64,000 nt of DNA from an uncultured Bdellovibrionales bacterium. Lineage in GTDB: Bacteria > Patescibacteriota > Minisyncoccia > Moranbacterales > UBA1568. Below, piece by piece: positions 141 through 62,561 of this stretch; position 1 is the stretch's first letter; each line of letters opens with the position of its first letter. A program made the translations under genes and the position numbers. Location: positions 356,824 to 420,823 of the forward strand of contig CAZTBI010000001.1 in the NCBI GenBank assembly GCA_964612055.1, written 5' to 3'. Below the pieces are notes generated by a model. It did not search any database and was not told the DNA's origin. It saw nothing but the letters and a program-made list of their open reading frames with translations.

Positions 141-1964
141 CTATTTTTTCAACACAGCAAGAAAAGCACTCGACGGAATAGAAACTCTCCCCTGGCCCAT
201 TTCCTTGGCTTTTTTCTTCCCCTTTTTCTGCTTCTCCAAAAGCTTCTTCTTGCGTGAGAAGTCACCACCATACATGTAGCCGGTCACGTCCTTGCGGTAG
301 GCAGCAATCGTCTCCCGAGCAATCACCTTGCCACCGATAGCCGCCTGCAGAGCCACGGCAAAGTTCTGGCGCGGCAACACTTCTTTCAATTTTTCCACCA
401 CGCGCTTGCCCTCACTGTGAGCATCACGTTTCGGCACCATGCGAGCAAAGGCATCGACTGGTTCATTGGCCACCAAAATATCAAGCTTGATAACATCGCT
501 TTCTCGATAACCGATCAATTCATAGTTCATGGAAGCGTAGCCAGAAGAAGCGCTTTTCAAATCATCGTGGAAGTTCACGATCACATCCATAAGTGGCGCC
601 TCAAAAGAAAGCAGTACGCGCTCTTCGTCGATATATTCCGTATTCTTGTAATCAGCTCGGATAGACTGGCACAGCTGCATGACACCACCGAGGTATTCAC
701 TTGGCGCTACAATCGAAAGCGCCACATACGGTTCGTACATAGCTTCGATACTCGCCGGATCTGGCAGATCAACCGGCGAATACAGGGCAATATTTTTCTC
801 CTCACCTCGAATTTTCATTTCATATACCACCGATGGCGTCGTAATGGTCGGTACCAGACTAAATTCTCGCTCCAGACGCGCCTGAATAATTTCCAAATGA
901 AGCAGCCCTAGGAATCCACAACGAAAACCCCGACCGAGTGCCTGGTTACTTTCCGGCTCAAAAGTGAAAGCGGCGTCATTGAGTTTCAGTTTATCAAGGG
1001 CGTCACGCATAAGCGTGTAGTCGTCGCCATCCACCGGATACATACTGGCATACACAGCTGGTCTGATTTCTTTGTATCCCGGCAGCCGCTCTACCACGGT
1101 CTGGTCACGATCTTTCTTTTTCCAGGTCACGGTATCACCGACCCGGCAGTCAGCCACGGCCTTCAGCCCAGTAGCTACATACCCAATATCACCAGCACGC
1201 AAAACATCGGTCGCCACAAGATTCGGATGGAAAAGCCCAACCTCGACTGTCACGCCCTCTTTTTCCGTCCCGAGCATATGAAGCACATCGTCACGCTTCA
1301 CAGAACCATCAACGACTTTCACATACGCCACGACGCCCTTGTAGGTATTGTAGACGGAATCAAAAATAAGAGCCCGCAGCGGCGCCTCCTCATCACCCTT
1401 TGGTCCCGGCACTCGCTCAATCACACGCTCCAGTACCGCCTGCACGCCGAGACCGGTCTTCCCAGAAGCGAGGAGGATATCTTCTTCTTTGACACCCAGA
1501 ATATGCACGATTTCTTTCTTTGTTTTTTCCACCTGGGCATTTGGCAAATCAATCTTGTTGATTACTGGAATAATCTCTAATCCCTGTTCAATGGCCAAGT
1601 ACAGGTTCGCCAAAGTCTGAGCCTGCACACCTTTGGTGGCATCAACGAGCAAAATTGCCCCTTCGACAGCCGCCAAAGAGCGGGATACTTCGTAGTGAAA
1701 GTCGACATGTCCTGGAGTATCAATCAGATTGAGCATGTACTCCGTTCCTTGGTAGGCATAATGCATCTGGACTGGCTGAAGCTTGATAGTAATACCGCGT
1801 TCACGTTCCAGGTCCATTTGATCGAGCAACTGCTCCTTCATCTTGCGCATTTCTACCGTTTTAGTCAGCTCAAGCAGCCGGTCAGCCAGAGTCGACTTTC
1901 CGTGATCAATGTGCGCAATAATACAAAAATTGCGGATATTTTGTTGACGTATACTTTTGTCCAT
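141..1964 (-). CDS. lepA: Elongation factor 4 (LepA), translational GTPase
   Basis: 607 aa. G-domain motifs AHIDHGKST and DTPGHVDF, and a LepA-specific C-terminal domain. ATG start confirmed in the sequence. Confidence 0.95.
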   Translation of the reverse strand: MDKSIRQQNIRNFCIIAHIDHGKSTLADRLLELTKTVEMRKMKEQLLDQMDLERERGITIKLQPVQMHYAYQGTEYMLNLIDTPGHVDFHYEVSRSLAAVEGAILLVDATKGVQAQTLANLYLAIEQGLEIIPVINKIDLPNAQVEKTKKEIVHILGVKEEDILLASGKTGLGVQAVLERVIERVPGPKGDEEAPLRALIFDSVYNTYKGVVAYVKVVDGSVKRDDVLHMLGTEKEGVTVEVGLFHPNLVATDVLRAGDIGYVATGLKAVADCRVGDTVTWKKKDRDQTVVERLPGYKEIRPAVYASMYPVDGDDYTLMRDALDKLKLNDAAFTFEPESNQALGRGFRCGFLGLLHLEIIQARLEREFSLVPTITTPSVVYEMKIRGEEKNIALYSPVDLPDPASIEAMYEPYVALSIVAPSEYLGGVMQLCQSIRADYKNTEYIDEERVLLSFEAPLMDVIVNFHDDLKSASSGYASMNYELIGYRESDVIKLDILVANEPVDAFARMVPKRDAHSEGKRVVEKLKEVLPRQNFAVALQAAIGGKVIARETIAAYRKDVTGYMYGGDFSRKKKLLEKQKKGKKKAKEMGQGRVSIPSSAFLAVLKK

Positions 1965-2000
1965 TCCCCAAGCCTAGCCGAAAAATGCCCTTCGAGCAAG

Positions 2001-2040
2001 GAAAAAGAAAAAAGGCGTCCTTGAGATTCCAAGAACGCCT
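2001..2040 (-). terminator. Intrinsic terminator (interrupted 10-bp stem plus T-rich tail) downstream of small Cys ORF
   Basis: Stem AGGCGT-c-CTTG ... CAAG-a-ACGCCT. On the minus strand followed by TTTTTTCTTTTTCC. Confidence 0.6.
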
Positions 2041-2058
2041 CCTATGCCATGTTTGTAA

Positions 2059-2271
2059 TCAGTCCACTTCCCAGGGACCAAGCACTACCTCCAATTGCTC
2101 CTTGGCAACCCCAGCCTTATTTGCTGCCGCATTCCGGCAACAAGCCCTGACAGCTCGCTCAGGACTACCGGTTACCGTAAATGTGTACCGATCGCCTGAG
2201 TGACCACAAGGGCAAGGGCGATGGAGTGCCAACTTCATTCGGTCCTGCTTACTTACTTGTTCGACAAACAC
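2059..2271 (-). CDS. Small Cys-rich hypothetical protein (CPCGH...CC), GTG start
   Basis: 70-aa ORF followed by an intrinsic terminator at ~2001-2040. The start codon is GTG with a weak RBS. Coding status uncertain. Confidence 0.3.
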   Translation of the reverse strand: MFVEQVSKQDRMKLALHRPCPCGHSGDRYTFTVTGSPERAVRACCRNAAANKAGVAKEQLEVVLGPWEVD

Positions 2272-2303
2272 AGTGTTACCCTTCCTTTCTTTGCCAGTGG
2301 AAA

Positions 2304-2342
2304 GAACAAAAAAGCCGGTCTGCTTTGGGGCGAGACCGGCTT
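2304..2342 (-). terminator. Intrinsic terminator: perfect 10-bp stem AAGCCGGTCT/AGACCGGCTT plus T6
   Basis: Seen directly. Loop 11 nt. Minus-strand tail TTTTTTGTTCTTT. Confidence 0.7.
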
Positions 2343-2485
2343 CTGTCTACTGTTTCGAACTTCCTCTACCCACGCGTAACAGCAAAAAGAAACTGACCTC
2401 GCTTCTCCCAAAAGAAGAAGCCGGCAATCATTTGCATAAAAAAGCGCTCTGTGGAATTCAAAATATGTTGCATAAAAGTATTCTC

Positions 2486-2514
2486 AAAATACCAACTCCA
2501 CTCCCGATTGTCAA
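2486..2514 (-). promoter_or_regulatory. Sigma70-like promoter TTGACA-17-TATTTT driving a short minus-strand unit that ends at the 2304-2342 terminator
   Basis: -35 is an exact consensus hexamer. The unit contains only a 35-codon ORF without an RBS. Confidence 0.45.
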
Positions 2515-2530
2515 ATATCATTCCTAAAAG

Positions 2531-2565
2531 AAAAAATTGTTTACACCATGGTGTAAACAATTTCC
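2531..2565. terminator. Bidirectional terminator: perfect 24-nt palindrome TTGTTTACACCATGGTGTAAACAA flanked by A6 and T3
   Basis: Seen directly. Downstream of the 84-aa gene on the minus strand. Confidence 0.7.
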
Positions 2566-2597
2566 ATGAATCCCTTTCTGCGACACCAGACATTGCC

Positions 2598-2852
2598 CTA
2601 ACCGATATAAAGGGCGTTGGTCCGGCTTCGGTTTTGCAAAAACTTCTCTTTAGCGTCAATAGCTTTTTTCTTGTCCGCAGCTGTTGACGCTTGCTTAACT
2701 GCTCGATCATGGGCCGCCACATCACGATGGAAGTTTTGGTGCGAAACATGTACCGCATATTGACCCCATGCAGCTCTCCGACGAGCTTCTTGCTCCCAAC
2801 CCACCCAATCGAAATCCTCTGGCTGGGGTTCGGATCTCTTACGACTCGACAT
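2598..2852 (-). CDS. Hypothetical small protein (84 aa)
   Basis: Own TTGACA-16-TATCTT promoter at ~2894-2921, AGGAGG RBS 6 nt before ATG, and a perfect 24-nt palindromic terminator at 2537-2560. Confidence 0.5.
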   Translation of the reverse strand: MSSRKRSEPQPEDFDWVGWEQEARRRAAWGQYAVHVSHQNFHRDVAAHDRAVKQASTAADKKKAIDAKEKFLQNRSRTNALYIG

Positions 2853-2893
2853 GATTGCCTCCTATTCCATCTCTCGGTGAGAGACTCTGAAGA

Positions 2894-2921
2894 AAAGATA
2901 CAGCATAGAAACGACCTGTCA
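2894..2921 (-). promoter_or_regulatory. Sigma70-like promoter TTGACA-16-TATCTT for the 84-aa gene
   Basis: Seen directly, immediately downstream of the murJ stop. Confidence 0.5.
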
Positions 2922-2931
2922 AGAGATTTAT

Positions 2932-4587
2932 TCACCAATCACCTCGCTCAGGATGGTCTTCGGCCAAGGCGGCGGTTTCTGGTTGACGGAAGACGCGACA
3001 GAGGAAAAATCGTCTGACGCGCTCCAATTCCTCGATCTGAAGCCAATACGAGAACAGGATGAACGCTCCCCCACCGATAGCGAAACCGGAAAGGAGCTGC
3101 AGGAACACTTCGATGAAGGTATCAAGCTCGTTGGTCGTCAACGCAAAAACTGATTTGGAAAACTGAGCAACTCCACCTGCCAGAAGTGAGGCAAGAAGAA
3201 TTTTCCCCACTGGAACCACAATCATCTTGTCGTCCCAAAAGGAAAGACTTTTTCGAAGGAGAAAATACAGGAGTGCAAAGTTCAATATGGTACTCACAGA
3301 GAAAGCAATCGCCAACCCCTGTACCGCGTACTGTGGCAACAAAATCGGAATGAGAATGATATGTACCGCTTCACTCACCAAGGCAACGTACAAAGGTGTC
3401 TTGGTATTTTGGAGCGCAAAGAACGCCCGAGCAAACAGCGGAATCAAACTCTGGGCAAACAGACTGATTGCCAGAAACTTCAGTACTTCAAAAGTTGTGA
3501 TGGTATCCTGCCAGTCGAAATTTCCAGATCCAAGAATAACACGAACACACTGGGCGCGGAAAATAATCATAAAGATCGAAAGTGGCACCACGAAAAACAA
3601 AATCTTGCGCGCGGTCCCGGCGAGCATCAGGAAAAAATCCTTGTCACTTTTCTTGGCCGCAAAGAGCGAAAGCGCCGGAAATGCTGCTAAAGAAAAAGCA
3701 ATTCCAAACAAACCTAAGGGAACACTCTGAATGTTGTTGGCCAGAGTAAACGCCGCCAAACTTCCGGAAACCAAGGTCGACGCGAAAATCGTCATGACCA
3801 AGAGACTCACCTGATTCACCGCCATACCAAGCGAACGCGGAATCATGAGCTTGAGCACTCGTCTCACGTTTTCATCCTTCCAGGCTGTAAACAACGCCCA
3901 CTGATACTGGAACCCAGCTCGATGCAAGCTCGGGTACTGAACAACCATATGAAGGAACGAACCCAAGACCACTCCCCAGGCCAGGCCGGCCGGACCAAAA
4001 GCTGTCGTCAAAAACAAGGCTCCAAAAATAATACCAACATTGTAGAAAACCGGAGCGAAAGAATACGCAGCAAACTGTTTGAATGAAACCAGAACACCCC
4101 CAAAAACTGAACTGACTGCAAGAAAGAGTGGGGAAAGGAGCATGATACGAGTAAGCTCCGTCACCAGTTGTTGCTTCTCGGGATTAAATCCTGGCGCCAA
4201 GAAAGCCGTCAACTGAGAAGCAAAGAGAATCCCAAAGAAAGAAAAACAACCGAGCGAAAAGAGCGTGGTGTGGAGCACGCCCGACGTCAACTTCCAAGCC
4301 GCTTCTTTTTTCTCCTCTGTCAGAAGCTGAGTAAAAACTGGAACGAAGGCCGCGCTCAGAGCTCCTAGTACCAAAAAACTGTACACCAGGTCCGGTAAAC
4401 GAAAGGCGGTGTAATACGCATCGAGCACATCACCGGCACCAAACTGCGACGCAAGGACGCGGTCACGGATGAAGCCCAAGAAACGACTGGCAATACCAGC
4501 AAAGGCGATCAGGAGCGCCGCGCCACCAACGGTCGCGCTCGGCGTACTCCCCCATGAAACAATCTGATTGACGACTTTTTTTACCAT
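2932..4587 (-). CDS. murJ: Lipid II flippase MurJ (MviN family)
   Basis: 551 aa polytopic membrane protein with the MurJ/MviN-type N-terminus (ASRFLGFIRDRVLASQFGAGDVLDAYYTAFRLPD). Confidence 0.85.
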   Translation of the reverse strand: MVKKVVNQIVSWGSTPSATVGGAALLIAFAGIASRFLGFIRDRVLASQFGAGDVLDAYYTAFRLPDLVYSFLVLGALSAAFVPVFTQLLTEEKKEAAWKLTSGVLHTTLFSLGCFSFFGILFASQLTAFLAPGFNPEKQQLVTELTRIMLLSPLFLAVSSVFGGVLVSFKQFAAYSFAPVFYNVGIIFGALFLTTAFGPAGLAWGVVLGSFLHMVVQYPSLHRAGFQYQWALFTAWKDENVRRVLKLMIPRSLGMAVNQVSLLVMTIFASTLVSGSLAAFTLANNIQSVPLGLFGIAFSLAAFPALSLFAAKKSDKDFFLMLAGTARKILFFVVPLSIFMIIFRAQCVRVILGSGNFDWQDTITTFEVLKFLAISLFAQSLIPLFARAFFALQNTKTPLYVALVSEAVHIILIPILLPQYAVQGLAIAFSVSTILNFALLYFLLRKSLSFWDDKMIVVPVGKILLASLLAGGVAQFSKSVFALTTNELDTFIEVFLQLLSGFAIGGGAFILFSYWLQIEELERVRRFFLCRVFRQPETAALAEDHPERGDW

Positions 4588-4603: not shown

Positions 4604-6808
4604 TCACCGAGAACCGAAAACGATCCCCTGAAAAACGTCTGTTTTTAGATCAGTTTCACGACGGAGTTCACGTCCATACGGTACCAGATTCGGCGCAGTC
4701 TGCCAAATGGGATTGAGATTCTGAGGAAATGATACTGATGAAAGAAGCGAACTGCCCATAGAACCTGCCTGCTTCTGAAAAAGCACCGAGTAAGAATCTG
4801 CCCCCTCTTCAGCTACCGCCTTAGCATCAACACGGAATGGTAGGAGGTAGCGATATTTGAGCGTCACTGACTCTTTCGGACTGACATAGGCCCAGGCACC
4901 GAACACTGTCTTATTCCCATCCACCGATATACGCACACCTGTCTTTGGATCAACGGTCATACTCTTTTCCTCACGTTCCACATCGGGATCCGTTTTGAAT
5001 CCCAAACGATCATAATCAAGTGGCGCCGGCGGAAACTCCCACGTCGTCCCTTCAGATGAAAGCAGTGTCGAACCCTTAGGCACATAGACCCGTACATAAT
5101 CAGCATTGACCTTGTTCCACCAATCATACGGCGTATCACCACCACGATGCGTACGGACAATAGTCACTGTGTCGATCACTGATCCATCATCTTGTATTTC
5201 CGCTTGATGTTTGATGCTCTCATCGATCACGCCGTCTGTTTTATAACCATTGATGTTACTGTGGATAACGGAGAGATAATCTTTTGGTGTATCAAGCACG
5301 CGCCCAGACCAACCCACTTCATCGATCAATTTTTCTGTTTCGGGATGACGAGCATACAGAAGGATGTGTTTTTCGTTTATTCCCTCAACCAATGACTCGG
5401 CGATACGACCAAGTGTCTTCCGATCCTGCAAAGCAAACACTTTTTCAATCAGAAGTTCGGAAAGATCAGCGAGTATCTGCTTCGGTTTATTCTCCTCCTT
5501 GTCATACTTTACTTCTACCTGTTCCTGAATAACAGGTATGAAATTATCCGCATCGACTGTCAGGCCGTACTGCGGCAAAGTAATCGGTCCGATAACAGAC
5601 AGCAGTCTCTGCATGATCACTGGCGTAAGCGTCACCACGCCATCCACCGTCGGTCCGCCAGTTTTTTCGTAGAAGAATATCGCCTTTTCAGCAGAGGTTG
5701 GAAAATCCGGAAACCAGTTACTGTCATGGAGACTCCAGCCAGCGCTGACCTTCTGCAACGGTTTCGGCGGAATGATATTTTCCTTGAGCTGTCCGTCTGG
5801 GTTGAAAATACCATCGACAAAGAAACGACGCACCACGCCATCATTTACATCAAGAAGTGCATACGTCCCGATGAATCCTCCGGTGGCCCGCATCTCGTGG
5901 TTGTTCTGAAGAAGAAAGAGATAGGTGCGTGGGCCATTGCCTCCGAGAAGTTCGTGAATCAACTGCTCATTCTTTTCGAAGCCGGAAAGAAGACTAAGGA
6001 GCGTCGGGAGTGCTGTACGGACAGAAAGAAACTTTTCCCGCCTTGCTTCCGGAATATCGTTCAATCGCACCAAAGAAAGCTCTTCCGAAGCCTGTTCAAG
6101 TGACGTGCGGGCCCGATTCAAAGGGTCTTTCGCCTGGGTCAGGAGATCAAGCAGCGATATTTTCTCACCCTGTGCATAGGCTTCCTTGGAAAGGGAAACG
6201 TCTTGTATAAGTTTCGAAAGCGGTTGCCCGGCTTGCGCGAAATGACGACCCGCTTCGATTGCATGCTTTCCCGAAGCCAATCGAGAGAGTCCCGGAATAA
6301 AACGGGTCGCATCAATCAGGATACTTCCTGGGAAAGAAAGCGTCGCTTCTGCCTGTGCAAACGACTGATGGGCGCTTTCGAAATGTCTACTCGCGCCATC
6401 ATATTGTTTCAACCTCAAAAGATCAGCTGCAAGAGCAAGATCTGCATAACCACTCTCGACCTGTTCCAATGTAGCATCTTTGGCTGTGACAGCAGTCCGA
6501 AAAAGCACATATCCCACTATCCCAAAGAAAGAAAGAAGCGCTATCACCAAAAATACTTTTCTCGATCCCGGCAATAGCGGCGAATGTTTTTCTTCTACCG
6601 GTTCTGCAGAATAGTACACTTCTCGAGACACCTCCTCTTGTGGAGAAAATGAATCTGATCCCAGGTCCAAAGAACTCTCTTCTGATGAAGAATATTCGTA
6701 TGAGACAGGATCAACACTTTCCCTTCCCGAGGAACCCTCTCCGAAAGTTGAGGGTTTCATATCAGAGAGCGATGGCCTTTCATTTTTCTGTAGAGGAGAG
6801 GGTAGCAT
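4604..6808 (-). CDS. DUF4012-like envelope protein: N-terminal disordered acidic/Ser-rich segment plus TM anchor
   Basis: 734 aa. Contains NNHEMRATGGFIGTYALL, which resembles the DUF4012 signature. Adjacent to a GT4 glycosyltransferase, as is typical for this family. Confidence 0.55.
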   Translation of the reverse strand: MLPSPLQKNERPSLSDMKPSTFGEGSSGRESVDPVSYEYSSSEESSLDLGSDSFSPQEEVSREVYYSAEPVEEKHSPLLPGSRKVFLVIALLSFFGIVGYVLFRTAVTAKDATLEQVESGYADLALAADLLRLKQYDGASRHFESAHQSFAQAEATLSFPGSILIDATRFIPGLSRLASGKHAIEAGRHFAQAGQPLSKLIQDVSLSKEAYAQGEKISLLDLLTQAKDPLNRARTSLEQASEELSLVRLNDIPEARREKFLSVRTALPTLLSLLSGFEKNEQLIHELLGGNGPRTYLFLLQNNHEMRATGGFIGTYALLDVNDGVVRRFFVDGIFNPDGQLKENIIPPKPLQKVSAGWSLHDSNWFPDFPTSAEKAIFFYEKTGGPTVDGVVTLTPVIMQRLLSVIGPITLPQYGLTVDADNFIPVIQEQVEVKYDKEENKPKQILADLSELLIEKVFALQDRKTLGRIAESLVEGINEKHILLYARHPETEKLIDEVGWSGRVLDTPKDYLSVIHSNINGYKTDGVIDESIKHQAEIQDDGSVIDTVTIVRTHRGGDTPYDWWNKVNADYVRVYVPKGSTLLSSEGTTWEFPPAPLDYDRLGFKTDPDVEREEKSMTVDPKTGVRISVDGNKTVFGAWAYVSPKESVTLKYRYLLPFRVDAKAVAEEGADSYSVLFQKQAGSMGSSLLSSVSFPQNLNPIWQTAPNLVPYGRELRRETDLKTDVFQGIVFGSR

Positions 6809-53728: not shown

Positions 53729-53983
53729 TTATTTAACGAGTGAATTTTCTATAAGTTCCAGCTTCGATGAACGGGGAAGTTTCTTGATACGAGATTCTTC
53801 GATAGAAGCTTTGGAGCGATTGCGAAAGGCTTTGGAATAGACCAGTTTCACCGGCCGCCTGGCTCGCGTATACTTTGCACCGAGAGCCGACGCATTATGT
53901 TCCTCTACTCTTCGTTTCAAATCTACGGTAATACCAGTATACAGCGTCTTATCCGCACACCGGAGAATATAGAGGTGATACAT
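53729..53983 (-). CDS. GIY-YIG nuclease-superfamily small protein (YhbQ/UPF0213-like)
   Basis: MYHLYILRCADKTLYTGITVDLKRRVEEHN ... GIY-YIG motif. Confidence 0.75.
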   Translation of the reverse strand: MYHLYILRCADKTLYTGITVDLKRRVEEHNASALGAKYTRARRPVKLVYSKAFRNRSKASIEESRIKKLPRSSKLELIENSLVK

Positions 53984-54007: not shown

Positions 54008-57000
54008 TTATTCACCTAACTCATTCGCCAGAAGTTCAGCTTGCTTCAAAACATTTTCGGTCGCTACCAACTGTTCATCGGGCGGATATCCATAACGATT
54101 CAAAATACGCTTCACATCTCGACGCAAACGCGCCCGGACACTCTCCTTGAGCGTCCAATCAATCGTCGCATTCCCCTTTACACTTCGGAATACCTCAATC
54201 GCTATCACGGCCAACTGCTTATCACCCAGTACTTCACGAGCGTTTTCGTTATTAGCAAGCGCATCATAAAATGCCAACTCATCTTCAGCGAGATCCAGTT
54301 CTTCTCCACGTTTGTCTCCTTCCCGAATATCTTTGGCAAGCTTGATCAATTCCTCAATCACCTGCGTTGTTGTGAGTAAATTGTTCTGATACTTCTTGAT
54401 GGCATTTTCGAGCATCTCCGAAAGCTTCCGACTCTGAATGAAGTTTTTTCTCGTCCGTGTCTTGATCTCATCATTCAATAATTTCTTCAACAATTCCAAG
54501 GCAAGATTCTTGCGCTCCATATGGCGCACGTCCTCCAAGAACTCATCCGAAAGAATAGAGATGTCTGGCTTCTTGATCCCGGCCGCATCAAAGACATCGA
54601 CGATACCTTCTGATACCACGGCCGCATCTACGATTTGCCGGATAGCCGTTTCAATTTCCAAATCAGACTTACCCGTTCCGGCTGGCTCAAACTTGGTCAA
54701 TCGTGCCTTTACCGCTTGGAAAAACCCAATCTCATCCTTCAACTCCATCGCTTTCAGGTTTGGCACGGACAGAGCAAAGGCTTGCGAAAGTAACCCCACC
54801 TCACGGGTAAACCGATTCTTGCCATCATCGAGTCCGAGCACGTGTTCCTGTGCCTCAAGGATCACCGTCAATTTCTCCCGGGTATCAGCCGAGAAATATC
54901 GTTTGTACTCAAATCCGGTAAACATCTGCTCGACGACTTCGAATTTTTCCAATAGCTTAGCAACTACTTCCGACTGGTCCAGTGTCGGCGTACCTTTGCC
55001 ACCACTCGATGTATAGGTCGCCAGAGCCGTTTTCAAATCAGAGGCGATGCCGATATAGTCCACGATGAGCCCTCCGGACTTATCCTTGAATACGCGATTC
55101 ACTCGAGCGATCGCTTGCATCAGATTGTGTCCACGCATCGGCTTGTCGACATACATAGTGGAGAGGCACGGTGCGTCGAATCCCGTCAGCCACATATCCC
55201 GCACGATCACCAGTTTCAGCGGATCGCTCGCATCCTTGAACCGCTCACCGAGCGCTTTGCGATTCTCTTTGGTGGTATGGTGCATCTGCCAATTTTCTGG
55301 ATCCGAAGACGATGACGTCATCACTACCTTGATTGCACCTTTTTTCAAATCCTGATCATGCCACTCGGGACGGATTTTCATTATCGCCTCGTAGAGCTCT
55401 ACAGCGATGCGCCGACTCATACAGACGATCATCGCTTTCCCCTCCATTGCTTCTTGGCGTTTCTCGAAATGATCCACGATATCAGTCGCCACTATCCGCA
55501 AACGGTCACGGTGTCCGACGATTGCTTCGAGCTGCGCCCACTTCGCCTTGGCCTGCTCGGCTGCTGTACTCTCTTCTCCTTCGGTAATCGAAGCAACCTC
55601 GTCATCGAGCCGGGATTTTTCTTCATCCTTCAAATGCACCTTAGCCAAGCGTGATTCGTAATAAATCCGCACGGTCGAACCATCTTCGACTGCCTGAGCG
55701 ATATCGTAAACATCGACATATTTCCCAAAGACCGCAGGTGTCGAGGCATCCTCTTTTTCAATCGGTGTCCCGGTGAATCCGATGAACGACGCATTCGGCA
55801 AAGCGTCACGCAGATACTTGGCAAAGCCGTATTTAGTGAAGACTTCTCCGTCTTTCTCGGTCGTCTTGGCACCAAAGCCATATTGACTCCGATGAGCTTC
55901 ATCCGCCACGATGATGATATTTTTTCGCTCAGAAAGCATGTCAAAGTTCGCCGCACCATCCGCTGGGAAAAATTTTTGTATGGTTGTGAAAACGATACCT
56001 CCACCCGTTACCCGAAGCAAGTTCTTCAATTCCTCACGATTGCTCGCCTTCACCGGATCCTGTCGCAACAACTGCTTGCAACTCGCAAAGGTATCAAAAA
56101 GTTGTTCGTCCAGATCGTTGCGGTCAGTGATAACCACTACTGTCGGATTATCCAGTGCCAAGACCACTTTGCCGGTATAGAACACCATCGAAAGCGACTT
56201 GCCACTCCCCTGGGTATGCCAAACCACGCCAGCCTTGCGATCGCCCGCTTCACTCGATGCTTCCATGGTCGAAATAATCGCCTTGTTCACAGCGAAGTAC
56301 TGGTGATAAGCAGCAATCTTTTTCACGGTGACGACTGACACTATCCCTGTCTTCGGATCTTCTTTCTTCGACTTTTCAAAAACAATAAACTGCCGAATCA
56401 GATCAAGTAGTACTTCTCGTGTCATCATCCCATGCACGAGCGTCTCGATCTGAGGCACTGTCGCTCGGTCCTCTTTCACACCATCCCGAGACTTCCACGC
56501 GAGGAAGCGCGACATGTCCGATGATATCGTCCCGACCCGAGCATCCAGTCCATCCGATGCGACCAAAAGTGCATTGTAATAAAAAAGCGATGGAATGGCA
56601 TTTTTGTAATTCTGAAGCTGGGTATAGGCTTTGTGGACTGTGGCGTTTTCATCCACTGGGTTTTTGAGCTCGATCACCACCAGCGGTAGCCCATTAATGA
56701 GGAGCACTACGTCGGGACGCTTGGTCACATTATTCTCGATCACGGTGTACTGATTACGCACGAGGAATTCGTTTTTTGTGACATTTCCGAAGTCAACCAA
56801 ATGCACTTTCTCGCCTTTTACTCCATCCGTTCCCATCACTTCTACCTCGATCCCTTCGGTGAGCATGCGATGAAACGCCTCATTGTTGTCCATCAAGTTC
56901 TGACTCGGTAAATTGAGCACAAGGCGCAAAGCTTGTTCTTTGGCTTCTTCTGGGATACTCGGGTTGATCCGGTCAATCGCCTGCTTCAATCGTTCCCGTA

Positions 57001-57124
57001 ACACTACTCCACCAAGATCGGGTCTTTCTTTCTCTTGATCCTCAGGCGACAAATACTCGAACCCTTGGGATTCCAAAAGCTCAATCATGAATTCTTCAAT
57101 CGTAGATTCAAATATTTTGGTCAT
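54008..57124 (-). CDS. hsdR: Type I restriction enzyme R subunit (HsdR)
   Basis: 1038 aa. N-terminal PD-(D/E)xK region, SF2 helicase motifs (TQGSGKS, DEAH-like VADEAHRSQ, motif VI) and the HsdR C-terminal domain. Confidence 0.9.
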
Positions 57125-57597
57125 GACTTTCTACCCTTTGATTCTTGGATTATTATCTGCGCCAACATCCCAAACATTCTATATCCATAAAATAGGTTAA
57201 ACAAAAATACAGAAGTAAGGAGATAACTAGACTTACTGTCCATATAAACATTATTAACTCCACTCTGATTCAGTAGAAGGATAAGCACAATAATATATAG
57301 TATTGAAGCCAAAACAACAAGCATCCCTACCTTATACTTAAAGATAAGAGCGTGTAACAATGTTTGTGATTTATCTTCGCTATCAGTCAAGCTATAAAGA
57401 CTAGTAACATACTTAGACGTTGAAAAAATAGCAAAACTTGTTACGTAAAACCCAAAGGCTATTGAAAGAAAAGTTACAACATTCGTTAATAAATCAACTT
57501 TCAAAACAAAGCCTTGAAGGAAAAAATTTTGTAAGTAATATCCGCCGATACCAAATATAAACAACTCGACTATTAGTCTTTTATACTGCGGTTTCAT
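57121..57597 (-). CDS. Unknown 4-TM membrane protein embedded between hsdS and hsdR (candidate defence effector)
   Basis: 158 aa, very AT-rich. Start overlaps the upstream gene by 17 nt and the stop overlaps the hsdR start by 4 nt, so translationally coupled. Confidence 0.55.
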
Positions 57598-58408
57598 TTT
57601 GTTTTATTTTAGTGATTAGTGATTCAAAAAGATTGTTCTCATAGAGCTTCCCTGTTTTATCATCAGTAACTCCATCTACTGATATCTTATTCACCACTCC
57701 ATCAGTATTAAACACGGACGAAAAGTCATCTGCTGTTCTTCCGACTATTGTCAATTTTTCAAAAGTACTCTTTTTTCCTATTATAGACCGCATCTTATCT
57801 TTTACGCTACCGATAGTCATCCCTCTTTTATATCTCAAAATCAATGTTGCTTCATCTGCGCCAAAACCATATATATCCTCTGATAGTTTTGCAGAAAGTA
57901 ACTGCGAATCATACTGATTGAACAAATTAGGCACAACAGTTAAGGACACTTCAGAAACGCTTTTTATTTTATTGATGAATTCTTCTTTATCAAAGAGCGG
58001 TTTTATAACCACTTCAGCACCAGTCTTCTCTGCGAGCCAACCGATCAGGGTATTTACCCTTCTTTGGTCCGATATGTAGATTATTTGAGTATTTGCATCA
58101 ATAAGGGCGAATACCTGATCATTTGTTTCTATTTCTTCTGGTGACTTTGGATTATCATGCTCCTTCAGACTAGCGGAATCAACAACCATCGGAGAGTAAG
58201 GCCATTTTTCTCCTTCTTGAAAATATAACCCTATAAACCGACTCTCGAACTCTACTTTTTTAAAAATCCGTATAGATATGACTTCTTGGTCTATTTTAAA
58301 CGGCTCAGTATGACTCCCTGGTATTCTTCCTGAAAAATCAAAAACAAAGCGATTATCGTCAACAATCATCTGGTTTGCTGAAAATGACACTTGCTTTACT
58401 TTGCCCAT
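57581..58408 (-). CDS. Unknown soluble protein (275 aa) embedded between hsdS and hsdR (candidate defence sensor)
   Basis: AT-rich. No TM. No recognisable catalytic motif. 5-nt gap to the hsdS stop. Confidence 0.55.
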   Translation of the reverse strand: MGKVKQVSFSANQMIVDDNRFVFDFSGRIPGSHTEPFKIDQEVISIRIFKKVEFESRFIGLYFQEGEKWPYSPMVVDSASLKEHDNPKSPEEIETNDQVFALIDANTQIIYISDQRRVNTLIGWLAEKTGAEVVIKPLFDKEEFINKIKSVSEVSLTVVPNLFNQYDSQLLSAKLSEDIYGFGADEATLILRYKRGMTIGSVKDKMRSIIGKKSTFEKLTIVGRTADDFSSVFNTDGVVNKISVDGVTDDKTGKLYENNLFESLITKIKQNETAV

Positions 58409-58413
58409 AAAAG

Positions 58414-59613
58414 CTACTTACTTATCGTTACTTCTCCGCTCATCAACTTTGGCAAAAGAGTGTCTCTGAGGGTTAAGAGGGTTTGGATTTGAGAATCATT
58501 ATTCCAGATTTTGTATTGCAATGGCTTTATAACTTCGGCAAATTCATTCGCAATATTTGGCGTTGGAACAATATATTTTTTCTGCTCAAAATCCGGCCAA
58601 TGCCCCTTGTATTCGATAAATGATACTTGGCCGAGAGTCATATAATAAACAAAGAATGTACTATACTCGATGTTTCCCCGAAATGGAAGAACGTTTTGAA
58701 TCGCACAAAATGAATAATTCACAAACCACATATTACATGTATGGTTTGTAAAAAGAATCACTGGGTTTTCCGTGCTCGCTTCAAAATCCGCTGCGCGAGA
58801 TGTATAACCATACAAACCCGTTGAGCCCTGATCAAAGATCGGTGTTTTTCCTTTCGAATCTAGATCATCTTTATCACAACGGTAACTTACCGAATGCTTT
58901 TTGATTACATCTTTCACCGTCCCGACTTTCCACCCCTCTGGGATTTCGCCGAGTTCGGAGTCGATCATTTTTCCACCGGAGGACTTATAGGGTTTGCCTT
59001 CAGCGTTCGGAAAATTGAAATTCACAAACCATTCTTTGAAAATCGCCTGCGCGGTCGCTTCAAGTGTTTTATTCTCCTCTCGCAAAAGTTCAATCTTATC
59101 ATCCAAACTCGAAAGCACCCCCGCAATTTCCTTTTGCTCAGGAAGAGATGGAAGAAGAATTTTTGTTTTTAGCAATTCCGACTGTTTTATACCCGTGACA
59201 GTTGACCCTGATTCCCTACTCTTCAATTGATGCTGATAGTATTTGCTATCAATAAAGTAATTAAAGAAAAAAGAATCAAGAATATTCTTCTTTGTTCTTA
59301 TTCCAAAAATTCGCTGACTTAAAACTAACTTCTCCTCCGATTTCCAAATAATATGCTCTCCTAGAGGAGCCTCTGAGGTCAAAAAAATATCGCCGTACTC
59401 AACCTCTTCTTTCATCCACTTCCTATACAAATTCTCTGACAAAAGATTCATCTGTCCCTCATTAACCAATTGACCATTTTTGATTGACTTTGCGGAAATA
59501 GCCCTATATCCGACCACGGACCAGTCTCCGCCCATTTTTTTAGGCGTCATCCCTCTATGGTCGATTATAATATCAACTGCTTTTCCTAAAGTTGTTTCTT
59601 TCCATTCGTTCAT
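58414..59613 (-). CDS. hsdS: Type I restriction-modification specificity subunit (HsdS)
   Basis: 399 aa with two target-recognition domains separated by the conserved central coiled-coil (LPSLPEQKEIAGVLSSLDDKIELLREENKTLE) and the C-terminal conserved repeat (LLTLRDTLLPKLMSGEV). Confidence 0.85.
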   Translation of the reverse strand: MNEWKETTLGKAVDIIIDHRGMTPKKMGGDWSVVGYRAISAKSIKNGQLVNEGQMNLLSENLYRKWMKEEVEYGDIFLTSEAPLGEHIIWKSEEKLVLSQRIFGIRTKKNILDSFFFNYFIDSKYYQHQLKSRESGSTVTGIKQSELLKTKILLPSLPEQKEIAGVLSSLDDKIELLREENKTLEATAQAIFKEWFVNFNFPNAEGKPYKSSGGKMIDSELGEIPEGWKVGTVKDVIKKHSVSYRCDKDDLDSKGKTPIFDQGSTGLYGYTSRAADFEASTENPVILFTNHTCNMWFVNYSFCAIQNVLPFRGNIEYSTFFVYYMTLGQVSFIEYKGHWPDFEQKKYIVPTPNIANEFAEVIKPLQYKIWNNDSQIQTLLTLRDTLLPKLMSGEVTISK

Positions 59614-59615
59614 AC

Positions 59616-60605
59616 CTATTCCAATTCAAAATCAGTAATTTCATTTGCCTCATCTATTGTTGATGTTATATATGCATCCGTGCTATCAACAATAGTGCCG
59701 CCATCACTATCTTCCCTCTCCAGATCCAAACCAACATATGTTTCGACTAAAAATACCCCATCTATACCCAGACTGCTATCCCCTTCAATTTTTTCAAATT
59801 TAGTACATTTATTCAAAATTTCAACTCCGACGATATCAAATTCCTCACCATCTTTTTCCCATTTCTCAATATTGTACTTAATATAGTCCTTAATCTGATC
59901 ATCAAAATATGATGTTTGTATCAGAGAGAAAATTTCTTGATTTTCAATAATATCAGCATATGAACTCTCTATTTTTGCTTGTAAAAGAGATAGGTCTTTA
60001 ATTATTTCAAGACTCTTATTCTTTTTTTCAATAAACTCTCTTTCGCATCCGTCGAACCCAGAATCATCCGTTAGAAAAAATATTTCATCGTAATAAGTAG
60101 TATTAGAAAAGTTTTTCAAAAGAGTTTCCCATATAACCACATCTTTGAATCCAGCATCGGTTCCCTTTTTAAACGGCGCTCTTTTCTCTACGGACCTGTT
60201 AAGAATATTTCTAAACATTTCTGCGTGATCGCTTTTGTCACTACAAAGAATTTTTATATGATAATTTTTAGTAAAAAACTCTTTTTGCTTTTCGTTAAGA
60301 AATTTTTTAATATCTAAATCAAAAAATTCAACCTCCTTAACAACGCCTACTTCTTGTAAAGATTTCGCAACTGACTTAAATCTCGACACATCAGTTGCAT
60401 ACTGATCAGTCTTCTGTTTTAACAGTTCACGAATAACAATTTCTGGAACAGCTATATGCACGTAATCTTTAAGTCCCTTCTCTTTGATGAAAGAGTCTAC
60501 GAATTTATAGTCGCCTCCCAATACAAAATCTGCGTATCGCAAGTCACTATTATTTGAATCTCTAAGCTTATTTGTATCAAACACTATAAGTGTTTTATAA
60601 GACAT
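59616..60605 (-). CDS. Unknown AT-rich protein between hsdM and hsdS, possible PIN-like nuclease fold
   Basis: N-terminal LIVFDTNKL resembles PIN strand 1 (hhhDTN). Candidate acidic residues at IRELL and FLTDDSGF. 2-nt gap to hsdS and 16-nt gap to hsdM. Confidence 0.5.
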   Translation of the reverse strand: MSYKTLIVFDTNKLRDSNNSDLRYADFVLGGDYKFVDSFIKEKGLKDYVHIAVPEIVIRELLKQKTDQYATDVSRFKSVAKSLQEVGVVKEVEFFDLDIKKFLNEKQKEFFTKNYHIKILCSDKSDHAEMFRNILNRSVEKRAPFKKGTDAGFKDVVIWETLLKNFSNTTYYDEIFFLTDDSGFDGCEREFIEKKNKSLEIIKDLSLLQAKIESSYADIIENQEIFSLIQTSYFDDQIKDYIKYNIEKWEKDGEEFDIVGVEILNKCTKFEKIEGDSSLGIDGVFLVETYVGLDLEREDSDGGTIVDSTDAYITSTIDEANEITDFELE

Positions 60606-60621
60606 ACACTAAAAAGTTTAA

Positions 60622-62169
60622 CTACGGTTTCAACCCGATCTTTGAAAGTTGCTTCTTTATTTCCTCGTTCAGCTCTTCTTCCTTTTCCATCTGTTGTTTC
60701 AATGTTGCTGTCAGATCAGCAATCTTTTTCTCAAACGGAATACCATCATTAACTTCATCGGGAATACCGACATAGCGCCCTGGGGTCAAGACGAAGTTGT
60801 GTTTGGTGATATCCTCGATTGTCGCAGATTTCGAGAATCCTTTTTTGTCTTCGTGCTTCCCCTCTTTGCTTCGCCATTCATGATAAGTGCTCGCGATCAT
60901 CGCCATATCCTCATCGGTGAATTCTTTGTGAGTCCGATCAGCCATATGCCCGACTTCGCTCGCATCGATGAAGAGGATTTCACCCGTACGTTTACGGTCA
61001 CCATTGCCGGTACGCTTGCGTGAGAGAAACCAGATACATGCCGGGATGCCGGTGTTGTAGAAGAGTTGCTTCGGCAAAGCGACGATACAATCTACCAAAT
61101 CATGTTCGATGAGTGACTGACGAATACTCCCTTCACCACTGGTTTGACTCGAGAGCGACCCGTTAGCCAAGACACACGCCATCACGCCTTTCGGTGAAAG
61201 ATGATAGATCATGTGCTGCAACCAGGCAAAGTTGGCATTGCCGGCTGGTGGCATCCCATATTGCCACCGCGGATCATTAGCTAGGAGTTGCCCTGACCAG
61301 TCGCTGTCATTGAAGGGTGGGTTGGCGAGGATATAGTCGGCCTTCAAATCTTTGTGTGCGTCATTCAAAAATGATCCTTCAGTGTTCCACTTCACCTGTG
61401 ATCCATCGATCCCCCGAATCGCCAAGTTCATCCGACAGAGACGATAGGTAGTCTGATTGCTTTCTTGTCCGTAAATAGAGATATCATCTACCTTTCCTTG
61501 GTGACTCTCCACGAATTTCTCACTCATAATAAACATCCCGCCCGATCCACAGGCTGGGTCATACACCCGGCCGCTATGGGGCTCGATCATTTCTACCATC
61601 AGCTTCACGATCGATTTCGGCGTGTAGAACTGACCACCTTTCTTGCCTTCGGCATTGGCGAATTCTCCAAGGAAGTATTCGTAGACTCGCCCAAGAAGAT
61701 CTTTACTCTTGGCTGCCTCGGTCCCAAGCGCGATATTCCCCACGAGATCGATCAGTCCACCGAGCGCAGTTTTGTCGAGATTCGGACGAGCATAGACTTT
61801 GGGCAGAATACCTTTCAAGGTCGGATTTTCTTTCTCGATCGCCTCCATCGCATCATCGAGATCCGTGCCGATACCGGGCTGCTTGGCTCGTGCATGGAGA
61901 TAATTCCAACGAGCTACTTGCGGAACAAAGAAAACATTTTCCGCCCGATATTCATCAGCATCTTCCGGATTGGCATCTTTGAAGTCTCCTTCTCCAGCTT
62001 TTATTTTTTCGTACAGCTCCTCGAAAGAATCTGAGATGTATTTGAGGAAAATAAGCCCAAGGACAATATGCTTGTACTCAGCCGCATCCATATTCTTGCG
62101 AAGCTTATCCGCCGCCCGAAAGAGGATCTTTTCAAAAGCCTCTGTTTTCTGGTTATCATTTTTCGCCAT
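60622..62169 (-). CDS. hsdM: Type I restriction-modification DNA methyltransferase subunit (HsdM), N6-adenine MTase
   Basis: HsdM N-domain (ILFRAADKLRKNMDAAEYKHIVLGLIFLKYISD). SAM motif I (DPACGSGGMF) and motif IV NPPF. The true start is the internal ATG (MAKNDNQ). The upstream 93 codons of the ORF-track frame are spurious read-through over the GFA gene. Confidence 0.9.
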   Translation of the reverse strand: MAKNDNQKTEAFEKILFRAADKLRKNMDAAEYKHIVLGLIFLKYISDSFEELYEKIKAGEGDFKDANPEDADEYRAENVFFVPQVARWNYLHARAKQPGIGTDLDDAMEAIEKENPTLKGILPKVYARPNLDKTALGGLIDLVGNIALGTEAAKSKDLLGRVYEYFLGEFANAEGKKGGQFYTPKSIVKLMVEMIEPHSGRVYDPACGSGGMFIMSEKFVESHQGKVDDISIYGQESNQTTYRLCRMNLAIRGIDGSQVKWNTEGSFLNDAHKDLKADYILANPPFNDSDWSGQLLANDPRWQYGMPPAGNANFAWLQHMIYHLSPKGVMACVLANGSLSSQTSGEGSIRQSLIEHDLVDCIVALPKQLFYNTGIPACIWFLSRKRTGNGDRKRTGEILFIDASEVGHMADRTHKEFTDEDMAMIASTYHEWRSKEGKHEDKKGFSKSATIEDITKHNFVLTPGRYVGIPDEVNDGIPFEKKIADLTATLKQQMEKEEELNEEIKKQLSKIGLKP

Positions 62170-62189
62170 ATCTGTCTTTCCAATCCTAA

Positions 62190-62540
62190 TTACATGCTCT
62201 TCCCATCGAACTTCCCTGATTGCAGGGTTGAGAGGTCGACGCCCTGCAGACAGCGGACGTTTACCATGACGGTGGCGTTGCCGGCTTGATCGGTGCCGCG
62301 GCCGAAAGACTGGACTCCGCAGACTTTGCAGAAAAGATGAGCGATTTTCTTGGTGTTGAAGCGATACTCTGTAAGCATGTCCTCCCCCGAAAGTAGCGTG
62401 AAGTTCGCTGCCGGGACAAAGGTCAAGATGAAGCCCTTTATCTCGCAATGCGAACAGTTACAGGTAAACGTTTTCGTGAGGTCCGCCTCGACCTCATACT
62501 TCACCACCCCACAATGACACCCACCAGTATATTTTTGCAT
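62190..62540 (-). CDS. GFA-family (glutathione-dependent formaldehyde-activating enzyme/CENP-V-like) Zn-binding protein
   Basis: GGCHCGVVKYEV ... CNCSHC ... Cys pattern typical of the GFA family. Start set to MQKYTGG. Confidence 0.7.
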   Translation of the reverse strand: MQKYTGGCHCGVVKYEVEADLTKTFTCNCSHCEIKGFILTFVPAANFTLLSGEDMLTEYRFNTKKIAHLFCKVCGVQSFGRGTDQAGNATVMVNVRCLQGVDLSTLQSGKFDGKSM

Positions 62541-62561
62541 AGTATTTCTTCCAACCACGAA

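Follow-up and report, generated by a model that had tools for sequence, protein, structure and literature searches.

What is a predicted nuclease gene doing inside a type I restriction-modification (RM) operon, between the genes of the methyltransferase and specificity subunits? The question is raised by the window, a 64,000-nucleotide stretch of contig CAZTBI010000001.1 from an uncultured bacterium of the Moranbacterales (assembly GCA_964612055.1), in which an open reading frame (ORF) of 329 amino acids separates hsdM from hsdS. Judged by its sequence, the product of this ORF is a predicted metal-dependent nuclease of the PIN family, a member of PIN_12 (DUF4935, Pfam PF16289), and its clade has long been inherited, as an accessory gene, together with one lineage of type I RM operons. 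The favored explanation, held at a probability of about 45%, is drawn by analogy with PrrC: the protein would be a nuclease that is bound to the RM complex in latent form and acts as its guardian.

The nuclease assignment begins with the family profile. PF16289 matches the protein with 64.9 bits (gathering cut-off 32) and an E-value of 1.6e-17, aligning residues 7-184 with positions 1-172 of the 172-position profile, and the same family is precomputed on all 20 of the closest homologues found by word search. These homologues are only 30-44% identical to the protein, and because they are full-length and of the same size the ORF is taken to be a real gene. Their alignment contains a set of invariant or near-invariant motifs, namely D10 in LIVFDTN, E60 in ELLKQK, P144-F145, the stretch D150..G152-F153-K154-D155..W159, and D181. 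The initial annotation had recognized a PIN-like N-terminus, as the profile match bears out, and had proposed two acidic residues that are indeed conserved in the relatives, E60 (in IRELL) and D181 (in FLTDD), but it missed D155 (in GFKD). Relatives from the loci described below keep this D-E-D-D set almost throughout: D10 in 78/80, E60 in 80/80, D155 in 83/83 and D181 in 76/83, with asparagine in six. Since D10 and D155 lie within the peptide patterns used to fish these loci, only the conservation of E60 and D181 counts as independent evidence. The gene and its parts are laid out as follows.

59616..60605, minus strand: PIN_12 (DUF4935) gene, 329 amino acids, ATG start (six-frame ORF list).
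60006..60605, minus strand: N-terminal PIN nuclease domain, approximately residues 1-200, from the Pfam alignment and the strands of the AlphaFold2 model.
60576..60578 (D10), 60426..60428 (E60), 60141..60143 (D155) and 60063..60065 (D181), minus strand: predicted catalytic codons, read from the raw sequence.
59619..59993, minus strand: C-terminal alpha+beta domain, approximately residues 205-329, from the AlphaFold2 secondary structure.

The predicted structure agrees with the profile. An AlphaFold2 model built from the 20-sequence alignment (mean predicted local distance difference test score, pLDDT, 87.2; predicted template modeling score 0.75) contains five short strands (residues 5-9, 49-54, 117-120, 174-178 and 198-202) that alternate with helices up to about residue 202, in the order expected for a PIN domain and with its Rossmann-like alpha/beta/alpha fold and five-stranded parallel sheet. 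The highest-probability Foldseek matches in the Protein Data Bank (PDB) are VapC2 of Rickettsia felis (0.99) and the PIN domain of Nmd4 (0.89). Two outcomes had been named in the initial annotation as counting against a PIN nuclease, the lack of a PIN fold in a structure prediction and homology to a known non-nuclease protein, and neither was found. Beyond the PIN domain, the model continues with helices and then four long antiparallel strands (blockwise pLDDT mostly 85-94, with one block at 73). This C-terminal domain is variable in sequence and has only faint Foldseek matches, to the CaMKII hub and to ARC6/PARC6 domains, which we take to be NTF2-like; as modeled, it is a candidate docking or sensor domain. 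Searches of the PDB by sequence returned chance matches only for the single protein and none for the family profile. Scans against NCBIfam, PHROGs and PADLOC v2 gave no match except a 14-bit one to Menshen NsnC in PADLOC. The family is small: a search of 1.84 billion representatives gave 1623 clusters at E<=1e-3, of which 132 reach E<=1e-30. Matelska et al. 2017 assign it to the VapC group among PIN-like domains, list it as "function unknown" and describe a PIN domain at the N-terminus, containing 4-5 acidic residues, before a less conserved alpha/beta C-terminal region without structural relative.

The position of the gene is the rule in its clade. A PIN-like gene within an RM operon had first been regarded as an unusual insertion, a view that does not survive comparison with relatives from many phyla. 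The main sample comprises 84 loci, 80 from GTDB genomes scanned one per species and four from metagenomes; PIN_12 genes were identified with a hidden Markov model (HMM) and hsd genes by phmmer with the Hsd proteins of the window, and the counts apply to the sampled clade of PF16289. In 80/84 loci the PIN_12 gene, whose product is 25-44% identical to that of the window, is accompanied by hsd genes. The bacterial sources of the 80 GTDB loci are Bacteroidota, Bacillota, Patescibacteria, Omnitrophota, Spirochaetia, Akkermansia and Alphaproteobacteria; the archaeal sources (six lineages in one count) are Nitrosopumilus, Methanosarcinales, Methanohalophilus, Heimdall-, Bathy-, Woese- and Nanoarchaeota. 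In a second sample, drawn from metagenome contigs with long-form relatives as seeds, hsd context was seen in 77/80 loci; it is redundant, not having been de-duplicated, and consists mostly of gut Bacillota. Among 72,556 plasmids in PLSDB there is a single match, on Bacillus thuringiensis pBT62A, where a "PIN domain-containing protein", WP_141552299.1, stands between a methyltransferase and an S subunit. IMG/VR holds six matches, four of them in hsd context, and the phage collection INPHARED holds none.

Gene order is similarly constrained. If M denotes hsdM, P PIN_12, S hsdS and R hsdR, 48 of the 84 loci read M-P-S-R. Eight more read M-P-S, nearly all of them ended by the end of the contig, and about nine carry M-P-S with inverted extra copies of hsdS, as phase-variable loci. 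The remaining arrangements are M-S-P-R (three loci), M-S-R-P (three), R-M-S-P (one) and PIN_12 alone (four). All four metagenome contexts are hsdM-PIN_12-hsdS, and every one of the closest homologues on a long enough contig shows this order followed by variable genes and then hsdR, with overlapping reading frames. The most constant feature is the junction between PIN_12 and hsdS, which measures 43 nucleotides or less in 65/70 loci and is an overlap in 49/70, most frequently one of 4 nucleotides (ATGA-type, 29/70). The junction between hsdM and PIN_12 is an overlap or at most 17 nucleotides in 49/71 loci. In the other 22/71, further genes have been inserted after hsdM and PIN_12 still abuts hsdS; these insertions comprise a VapC-type PIN gene with a 308-amino-acid partner, a YhcG PD-(D/E)XK nuclease, a KAP NTPase, a Schlafen/AlbA_2 ATPase and a transposase. 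The PIN_12 clade is thus probably an accessory part of type I RM systems and not a chance insertion.

Such crowded operons invite a different explanation, in which the gene acts on its own as a one-gene defence or toxin module and the type I operon, as for TgvAB or BrxU, offers a safe landing site and co-regulation with no tie to the enzyme. Embedded, independently acting systems are known to cluster in type I operons (TgvAB; Payne et al. 2024), and the operons of relatives do hold VapC-type PIN pairs, YhcG nuclease, KAP NTPase, Schlafen-like ATPase, DUF6119 and ABC-three-component (ABC-3C) modules, while that of the window holds a second embedded module (ORF275 and ORF158, described below). 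A few relatives also lie outside type I operons altogether: L048, L049, which adjoins GmrSD, and L079, behind a type II methylase. Against free-standing modules speaks the near-obligate association with hsd genes and the fixed slot next to hsdS, and further evidence on this point comes from protein distances and domain fusions (see below). As for L079 (5004-7993), its PIN_12 gene overlaps by 32 nucleotides the end of an upstream type II N6/N4 methylase gene, with a BamHI-like endonuclease and GmrSD adjoining; the link of PIN_12 may extend beyond type I systems.

In the window itself, the operon runs on the minus strand in the order hsdM, PIN_12, hsdS, ORF275, ORF158, hsdR. Its type I identity is established by the joint presence of HsdM (N6_Mtase and HsdM_N), HsdS (Methylase_S) and HsdR (HSDR_N and a superfamily 2 motor). 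The neighbors of the PIN_12 gene are the following.

60622..62169, minus strand: hsdM, type I methyltransferase subunit (Pfam N6_Mtase, E 2e-113; HsdM_N, 2.9e-25).
60606..60621, minus strand: spacer of 16 nucleotides between the hsdM stop and the PIN_12 start (raw sequence).
59614..59615, minus strand: spacer of 2 nucleotides between the PIN_12 stop and the hsdS start (raw sequence).
58414..59613, minus strand: hsdS, specificity subunit (Pfam Methylase_S, E 1.1e-22, in two stretches).
57581..58408, minus strand: ORF275, first gene of the second embedded module, without a family match.
57121..57597, minus strand: ORF158, second gene of that module, hydrophobic and probably membrane-spanning, as seen from its sequence and its conserved pairing with ORF275.
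54008..57124, minus strand: hsdR, restriction/translocase subunit with a HindI-like C-terminal domain (Pfam HSDR_N, SWI2_SNF2, T1R_D3-like and T1RH-like_C, the last at E 1.7e-130).

Both the ORF list and the raw sequence confirm the 329-amino-acid frame and the 16- and 2-nucleotide spacers of the initial annotation: HsdM ends in ...IGLKP, followed by TAG at 60622 and the PIN_12 ATG at 60605, and the PIN_12 protein ends in ...FELE, followed by TAG at 59616 and the hsdS ATG at 59613. The start of hsdM is most likely the ATG at 62169 (MAKNDNQ...) and not the upstream TTG at 62448 of the mechanical ORF list; the resulting length fits that of homologues (about 510 amino acids). The TTG-extended frame (60622..62448) overlaps a cysteine-rich ORF of 122 amino acids in another frame (62190..62558). 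The nearest solved relative of the window HsdR is that of EcoR124I (E 5e-41), over the N-terminal half only. Directly downstream of hsdR, on the minus strand, lies an 84-amino-acid GIY-YIG nuclease gene (about 53729..53983; 6927-7181 in L001).

A scan of the minus strand for promoters and terminators within the operon found none above shuffled-sequence expectation, so that a single transcript is plausible. This, together with the position between the M and S cistrons, could indicate that the protein serves the operon itself, either as an RNase that processes hsd messenger RNA (adjusting subunit ratios, or delaying HsdR in a new host) or as an addiction toxin that stabilizes the cassette. In its favor, type I systems need restriction control during establishment. 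It is nevertheless the least probable of the explanations considered here. In some loci the gene stands after hsdS or hsdR instead, which fits a protein partner better than cis-acting RNA processing. Furthermore, PIN_12 evolves at the pace of HsdS, as conflict genes are expected to: across 49 complete loci, mean pairwise identity is 29% for PIN_12 and 27% for HsdS, compared with 61% for HsdM.

The fast evolution of the gene is accompanied by a distinctive base composition. Guanine-cytosine (GC) content is 0.483 in hsdM, 0.321 in PIN_12, 0.393 in hsdS, 0.361 in ORF275, 0.317 in ORF158 and 0.489 in hsdR, and it falls sharply at the start of hsdR (about 57,100) and within the last 150-200 nucleotides of hsdM (about 60,620-60,800). 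The earlier claim that PIN_12 is the lowest-GC gene of the locus stands for third codon positions (0.267), but in total GC it is roughly tied with ORF158. Among the fetched loci, the HsdM nearest to that of the window (lowest E-value, 2e-286) belongs to the Moranbacteria relative L019, with which identity is 78% for HsdM and 63% for HsdR, and 30% for both PIN_12 and HsdS; a fast-changing center between conserved flanks fits these values. Another ORF of the window (4604..6808) has a counterpart of at least 90% identity that NCBI attributes to a Candidatus Moranbacteria MAG, and the source of the window is probably a bacterium of the candidate phyla radiation. That the low-GC block at 57.1-60.7 kb is a recent, one-off swapped-in cassette was considered and rejected: PIN_12 is AT-richer than its own hsdM in 75/75 loci (L002-L087), by a mean GC difference of -0.098, and low GC thus characterizes the gene family instead of marking an insertion. 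PIN_12 is also AT-richer than hsdS in 63/75 loci, and hsdS than hsdM in 73/75. Fast turnover, cassette exchange or amino-acid composition could each cause this AT-richness.

Despite its divergence, PIN_12 shares its history with the conserved subunits. Pairwise protein distances in the 49 complete loci correlate between PIN_12 and HsdM (Spearman rho 0.79) and between PIN_12 and HsdR (0.78); the value for HsdM and HsdR is 0.91 and that for PIN_12 and HsdS 0.40; host phylogeny contributes to these correlations. This points to long co-inheritance rather than repeated fresh insertion.

A second connection is found in variants of the protein that carry a piece of HsdR. Twelve long forms of PIN_12 (462-506 amino acids; 11 in the first set plus that of L099) end in a segment of about 55 amino acids homologous to the extreme C-terminus of HsdR. 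Of eight long forms scanned with Pfam, three score above the cut-off for T1RH-like_C, at approximately positions 270-325 of that family (E 3e-8 to 3e-6), and an HMM of the HsdR tails from the loci matches 7/11 (E 2e-9 to 1e-4). By BLASTP, residues 414-470 of one long form (P0136) are 33% identical to residues 974-1030 of the window HsdR (E 1e-6). The motif IDW..ES..A..R..IKR.L can be aligned in all of the first 11 long forms. Further long-form proteins are P0123, P0131, P0137, P0156, P0160, P0163 and P0169. In each of the four loci with known context (L046, 6989-8410; L054, 6998-8518; L069, 7001-8440; L099, 5731-7221), the long-form gene directly follows an hsdR that retains its own tail. The L080 variant (2229-3227; order M-S-P-R) arrives at a similar fusion from the other end: the HsdR-tail motif occupies residues 31-65 at its N-terminus (E 6e-5), the PIN domain follows and the usual C-terminal domain is missing. 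The conserved tail of HsdR thus looks like a module that can be moved between proteins, and its two independent fusions suggest that the PIN_12 nuclease needs access to the binding partner of that tail. In EcoKI and EcoR124I, assembly with the methyltransferase reportedly requires the C-terminal region of HsdR.

These results bear on the idea of an independent module as well. Distances that track both HsdM and HsdR, a tail of HsdR gained twice independently and the lack of any nearby inhibitor gene, which a constitutively active PIN toxin would need, all argue against it, and overall it is rather unlikely. The HsdR tail could also be read differently, as a sign that the docking surface of HsdR is used by an alternative or additional effector subunit: the nuclease would take the place of HsdR on the M2S1 core and cut target DNA, R-loops or transcripts directly. 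Consistent with such a subunit, the hsdM-PIN-hsdS set of pBT62A has no hsdR within 7.5 kb (weak evidence, as the PLSDB gene table leaves out pseudogenes), and three PIN+HsdM+HsdS operons are without an R candidate (Matelska et al. 2017). It is made quite improbable by the presence of HsdR in nearly every locus that extends far enough. The family also falls within the VapC group, whose characterized members are RNases.

The explanation favored here, a guardian nuclease tied to the RM complex, can be set out as a sequence of steps. One transcript would yield the PIN_12 protein along with HsdM and HsdS, and the PIN_12 protein would dock on the RM complex. It would be held inactive there, since it has no antitoxin gene: the ORF list of the window contains no antitoxin-like small ORF next to PIN_12, for which the two spacers leave no room, and the same is true of the relatives. 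When the complex is disabled or overwhelmed, for instance by phage anti-restriction proteins, the nuclease would be released or switched on. Cleavage of nucleic acid from the cell or the phage would follow and stop the infection; RNA, the target of VapC-type PIN domains, is the most likely substrate. Such a role resembles that of PrrC, with an unrelated nuclease in a different slot of the operon. In position the gene agrees with a PrrC-like guardian, being located inside a type I hsd operon and on its strand. Indirect hints of latency are provided by the overlapping junctions, the shared phylogeny and the copies of the HsdR tail in the long and N-terminal-tail variants. More tentative, though a real prospect, is the general form of the proposal: a type I lineage across Bacteria and Archaea would possess a fourth component, a PIN nuclease docked on the methyltransferase core (in some variants via a borrowed HsdR tail, so that it may compete with HsdR for its site), which would convert the failure or inhibition of restriction into nucleic-acid cleavage.

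Several points weigh against a tethered, latent nuclease. Being a short form, the window protein lacks the HsdR-like tail, and hhalign detects no resemblance of short-form PIN_12 to HsdM, HsdS or HsdR (probability below 1%); the evidence that ties the window protein to RM consists of its position, its junctions and its clade membership. Tight operon coupling is seen in independently acting embedded systems too, as in TgvAB. The assembly role of the HsdR tail is extrapolated to this family from EcoKI and EcoR124I, and no solved structure in the PDB matches the HsdR C-terminal domain of the window's family. The choice of RNA over DNA as substrate is a guess from the VapC-group assignment, and the Foldseek E-values of the PIN_12 model against the PDB are weak (1e-2 or above). 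All loci were fished with peptide motifs of the PIN_12 clade at hand, which limits ascertainment. Finally, DUF4935 genes are called "usually mono-cistrons" by Matelska et al. 2017, and the RM link may therefore hold for the sampled clade only.

PIN_12 is not the only passenger of this operon. ORF275 and ORF158, which the initial annotation did not mention, constitute a second embedded module between hsdS and hsdR; they overlap each other by 17 nucleotides, and ORF158 overlaps hsdR by 4. No useful match to either was found in NCBIfam, PHROGs or PADLOC, nor to ORF275 in Pfam. ORF275 has five protein clusters in total, and its AlphaFold model, built from five sequences, reaches a pLDDT of 36. The same pair occupies the same slot in four other contigs (L088-L091; 59-91% identity), at least one of which (L088) has no PIN_12 gene. 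The module looks like a rare sensor-plus-membrane-effector candidate. Other relatives carry DUF6119 and ABC-three-component-like sets (MC6, CTD10/DUF2326, DUF3732) between hsdS and hsdR (L002, 10269-14600; L005, 6017-7609; L092, 12138-16923), and this operon lineage therefore has two separate insertion hotspots. In L004, a cluster at 223-4034, upstream of the hsdM-PIN-hsdS-hsdR operon, contains genes for QueF, QueC, a TGT-like protein, an Ogg-like glycosylase, SLATT and a ThsB-type TIR protein, which may form a 7-deazaguanine DNA modification or defence island.

That defence genes are embedded in type I operons is an established idea (PrrC; TgvAB; Payne et al. 2024). A description of the PIN_12 clade as a conserved component of type I RM, or of its HsdR-tail fusions, was not found in the searchable literature, an incomplete library outside which an earlier mention is possible. 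For PF16289/DUF4935, that literature yielded only Matelska et al. 2017 and one unrelated genome paper, and the papers on DUF3387 contain no explanation of the HsdR tail. Type I enzymes have long been treated as three-subunit machines, with PrrC as the one well-studied back-up nuclease wired into them. If the guardian role is correct, such wiring would be common and ancient in a large type I lineage found in archaea, gut Firmicutes, Bacteroidota and candidate-phyla bacteria (often without CRISPR), as a far more widespread, PIN-based counterpart of the single PrrC/EcoprrI case. It would likewise give DUF4935/PIN_12 a function and the conserved C-terminal tail of HsdR a role as a portable docking module, and would add a family that current defence-finding tools miss. 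In practice, cloning or deleting such hsd operons to obtain transformable strains would move a possible toxin along with them.

Among known systems, there is a weak resemblance to Menshen NsnC, which shares a PIN-like N-terminal domain (PADLOC match with E 0.006). The PIN-like domains of NsnC lack catalytic residues and are joined to a separate C-terminal toxin domain (PMC12065111), whereas the D-E-D-D set of PIN_12 is intact and neither NsnA nor NsnB is encoded nearby. The embedded systems HEC-03 and TgvAB (Vibrio cholerae) are similar in arrangement, being same-orientation genes nested in defence systems including type I RM, often with RNase-type effectors. HEC-03 (ABC ATPase plus PIN) is among the candidates found through "guilt by embedding" by Payne et al. 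2024, where PF16289 and DUF4935 are mentioned neither in the text nor in the supplements searched. PIN_12 differs from both in being a single gene without an ATPase partner and with no PADLOC v2 model, and its link to the host system looks tighter.

The VapC toxins have the same fold group and D-E-D-D set, and VapC2 is the top-probability structural match. Unlike VapBC modules, the PIN_12 gene has no VapB-like antitoxin gene upstream, and its operon partners are HsdM and HsdS; unlike VapC, its product is enlarged by long helical inserts and, at the C-terminus, by an additional domain of about 125 amino acids. The DUF4935 family of Matelska et al. 2017 has the same two-part build, and the window protein is a member. 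In contrast to the mono-cistrons reported there, the sampled clade lies almost always inside type I operons, in some cases with an HsdR tail.

A close parallel in arrangement is PrrC of EcoprrI, with its relative RloC. The gene for PrrC lies within a type IC operon; the restriction enzyme keeps the protein sequestered until T4 Stp triggers it (PMC3874165; PMC12707154). The two nucleases are not homologous: PrrC consists of an ABC-ATPase and a HEPN-type nuclease, the PIN_12 protein of a PIN domain and an alpha+beta domain, and scans of the latter with PADLOC, Pfam and NCBIfam gave no match to PrrC or RloC. Their slots differ as well, PrrC being located between hsdS and hsdR and PIN_12 between hsdM and hsdS. 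Furthermore, latency and trigger have been described for PrrC, whereas for PIN_12 both are proposed. What PrrC and PIN_12 have in common is the arrangement itself, a nuclease gene carried on the same strand within a type I hsd operon and without an antitoxin gene.

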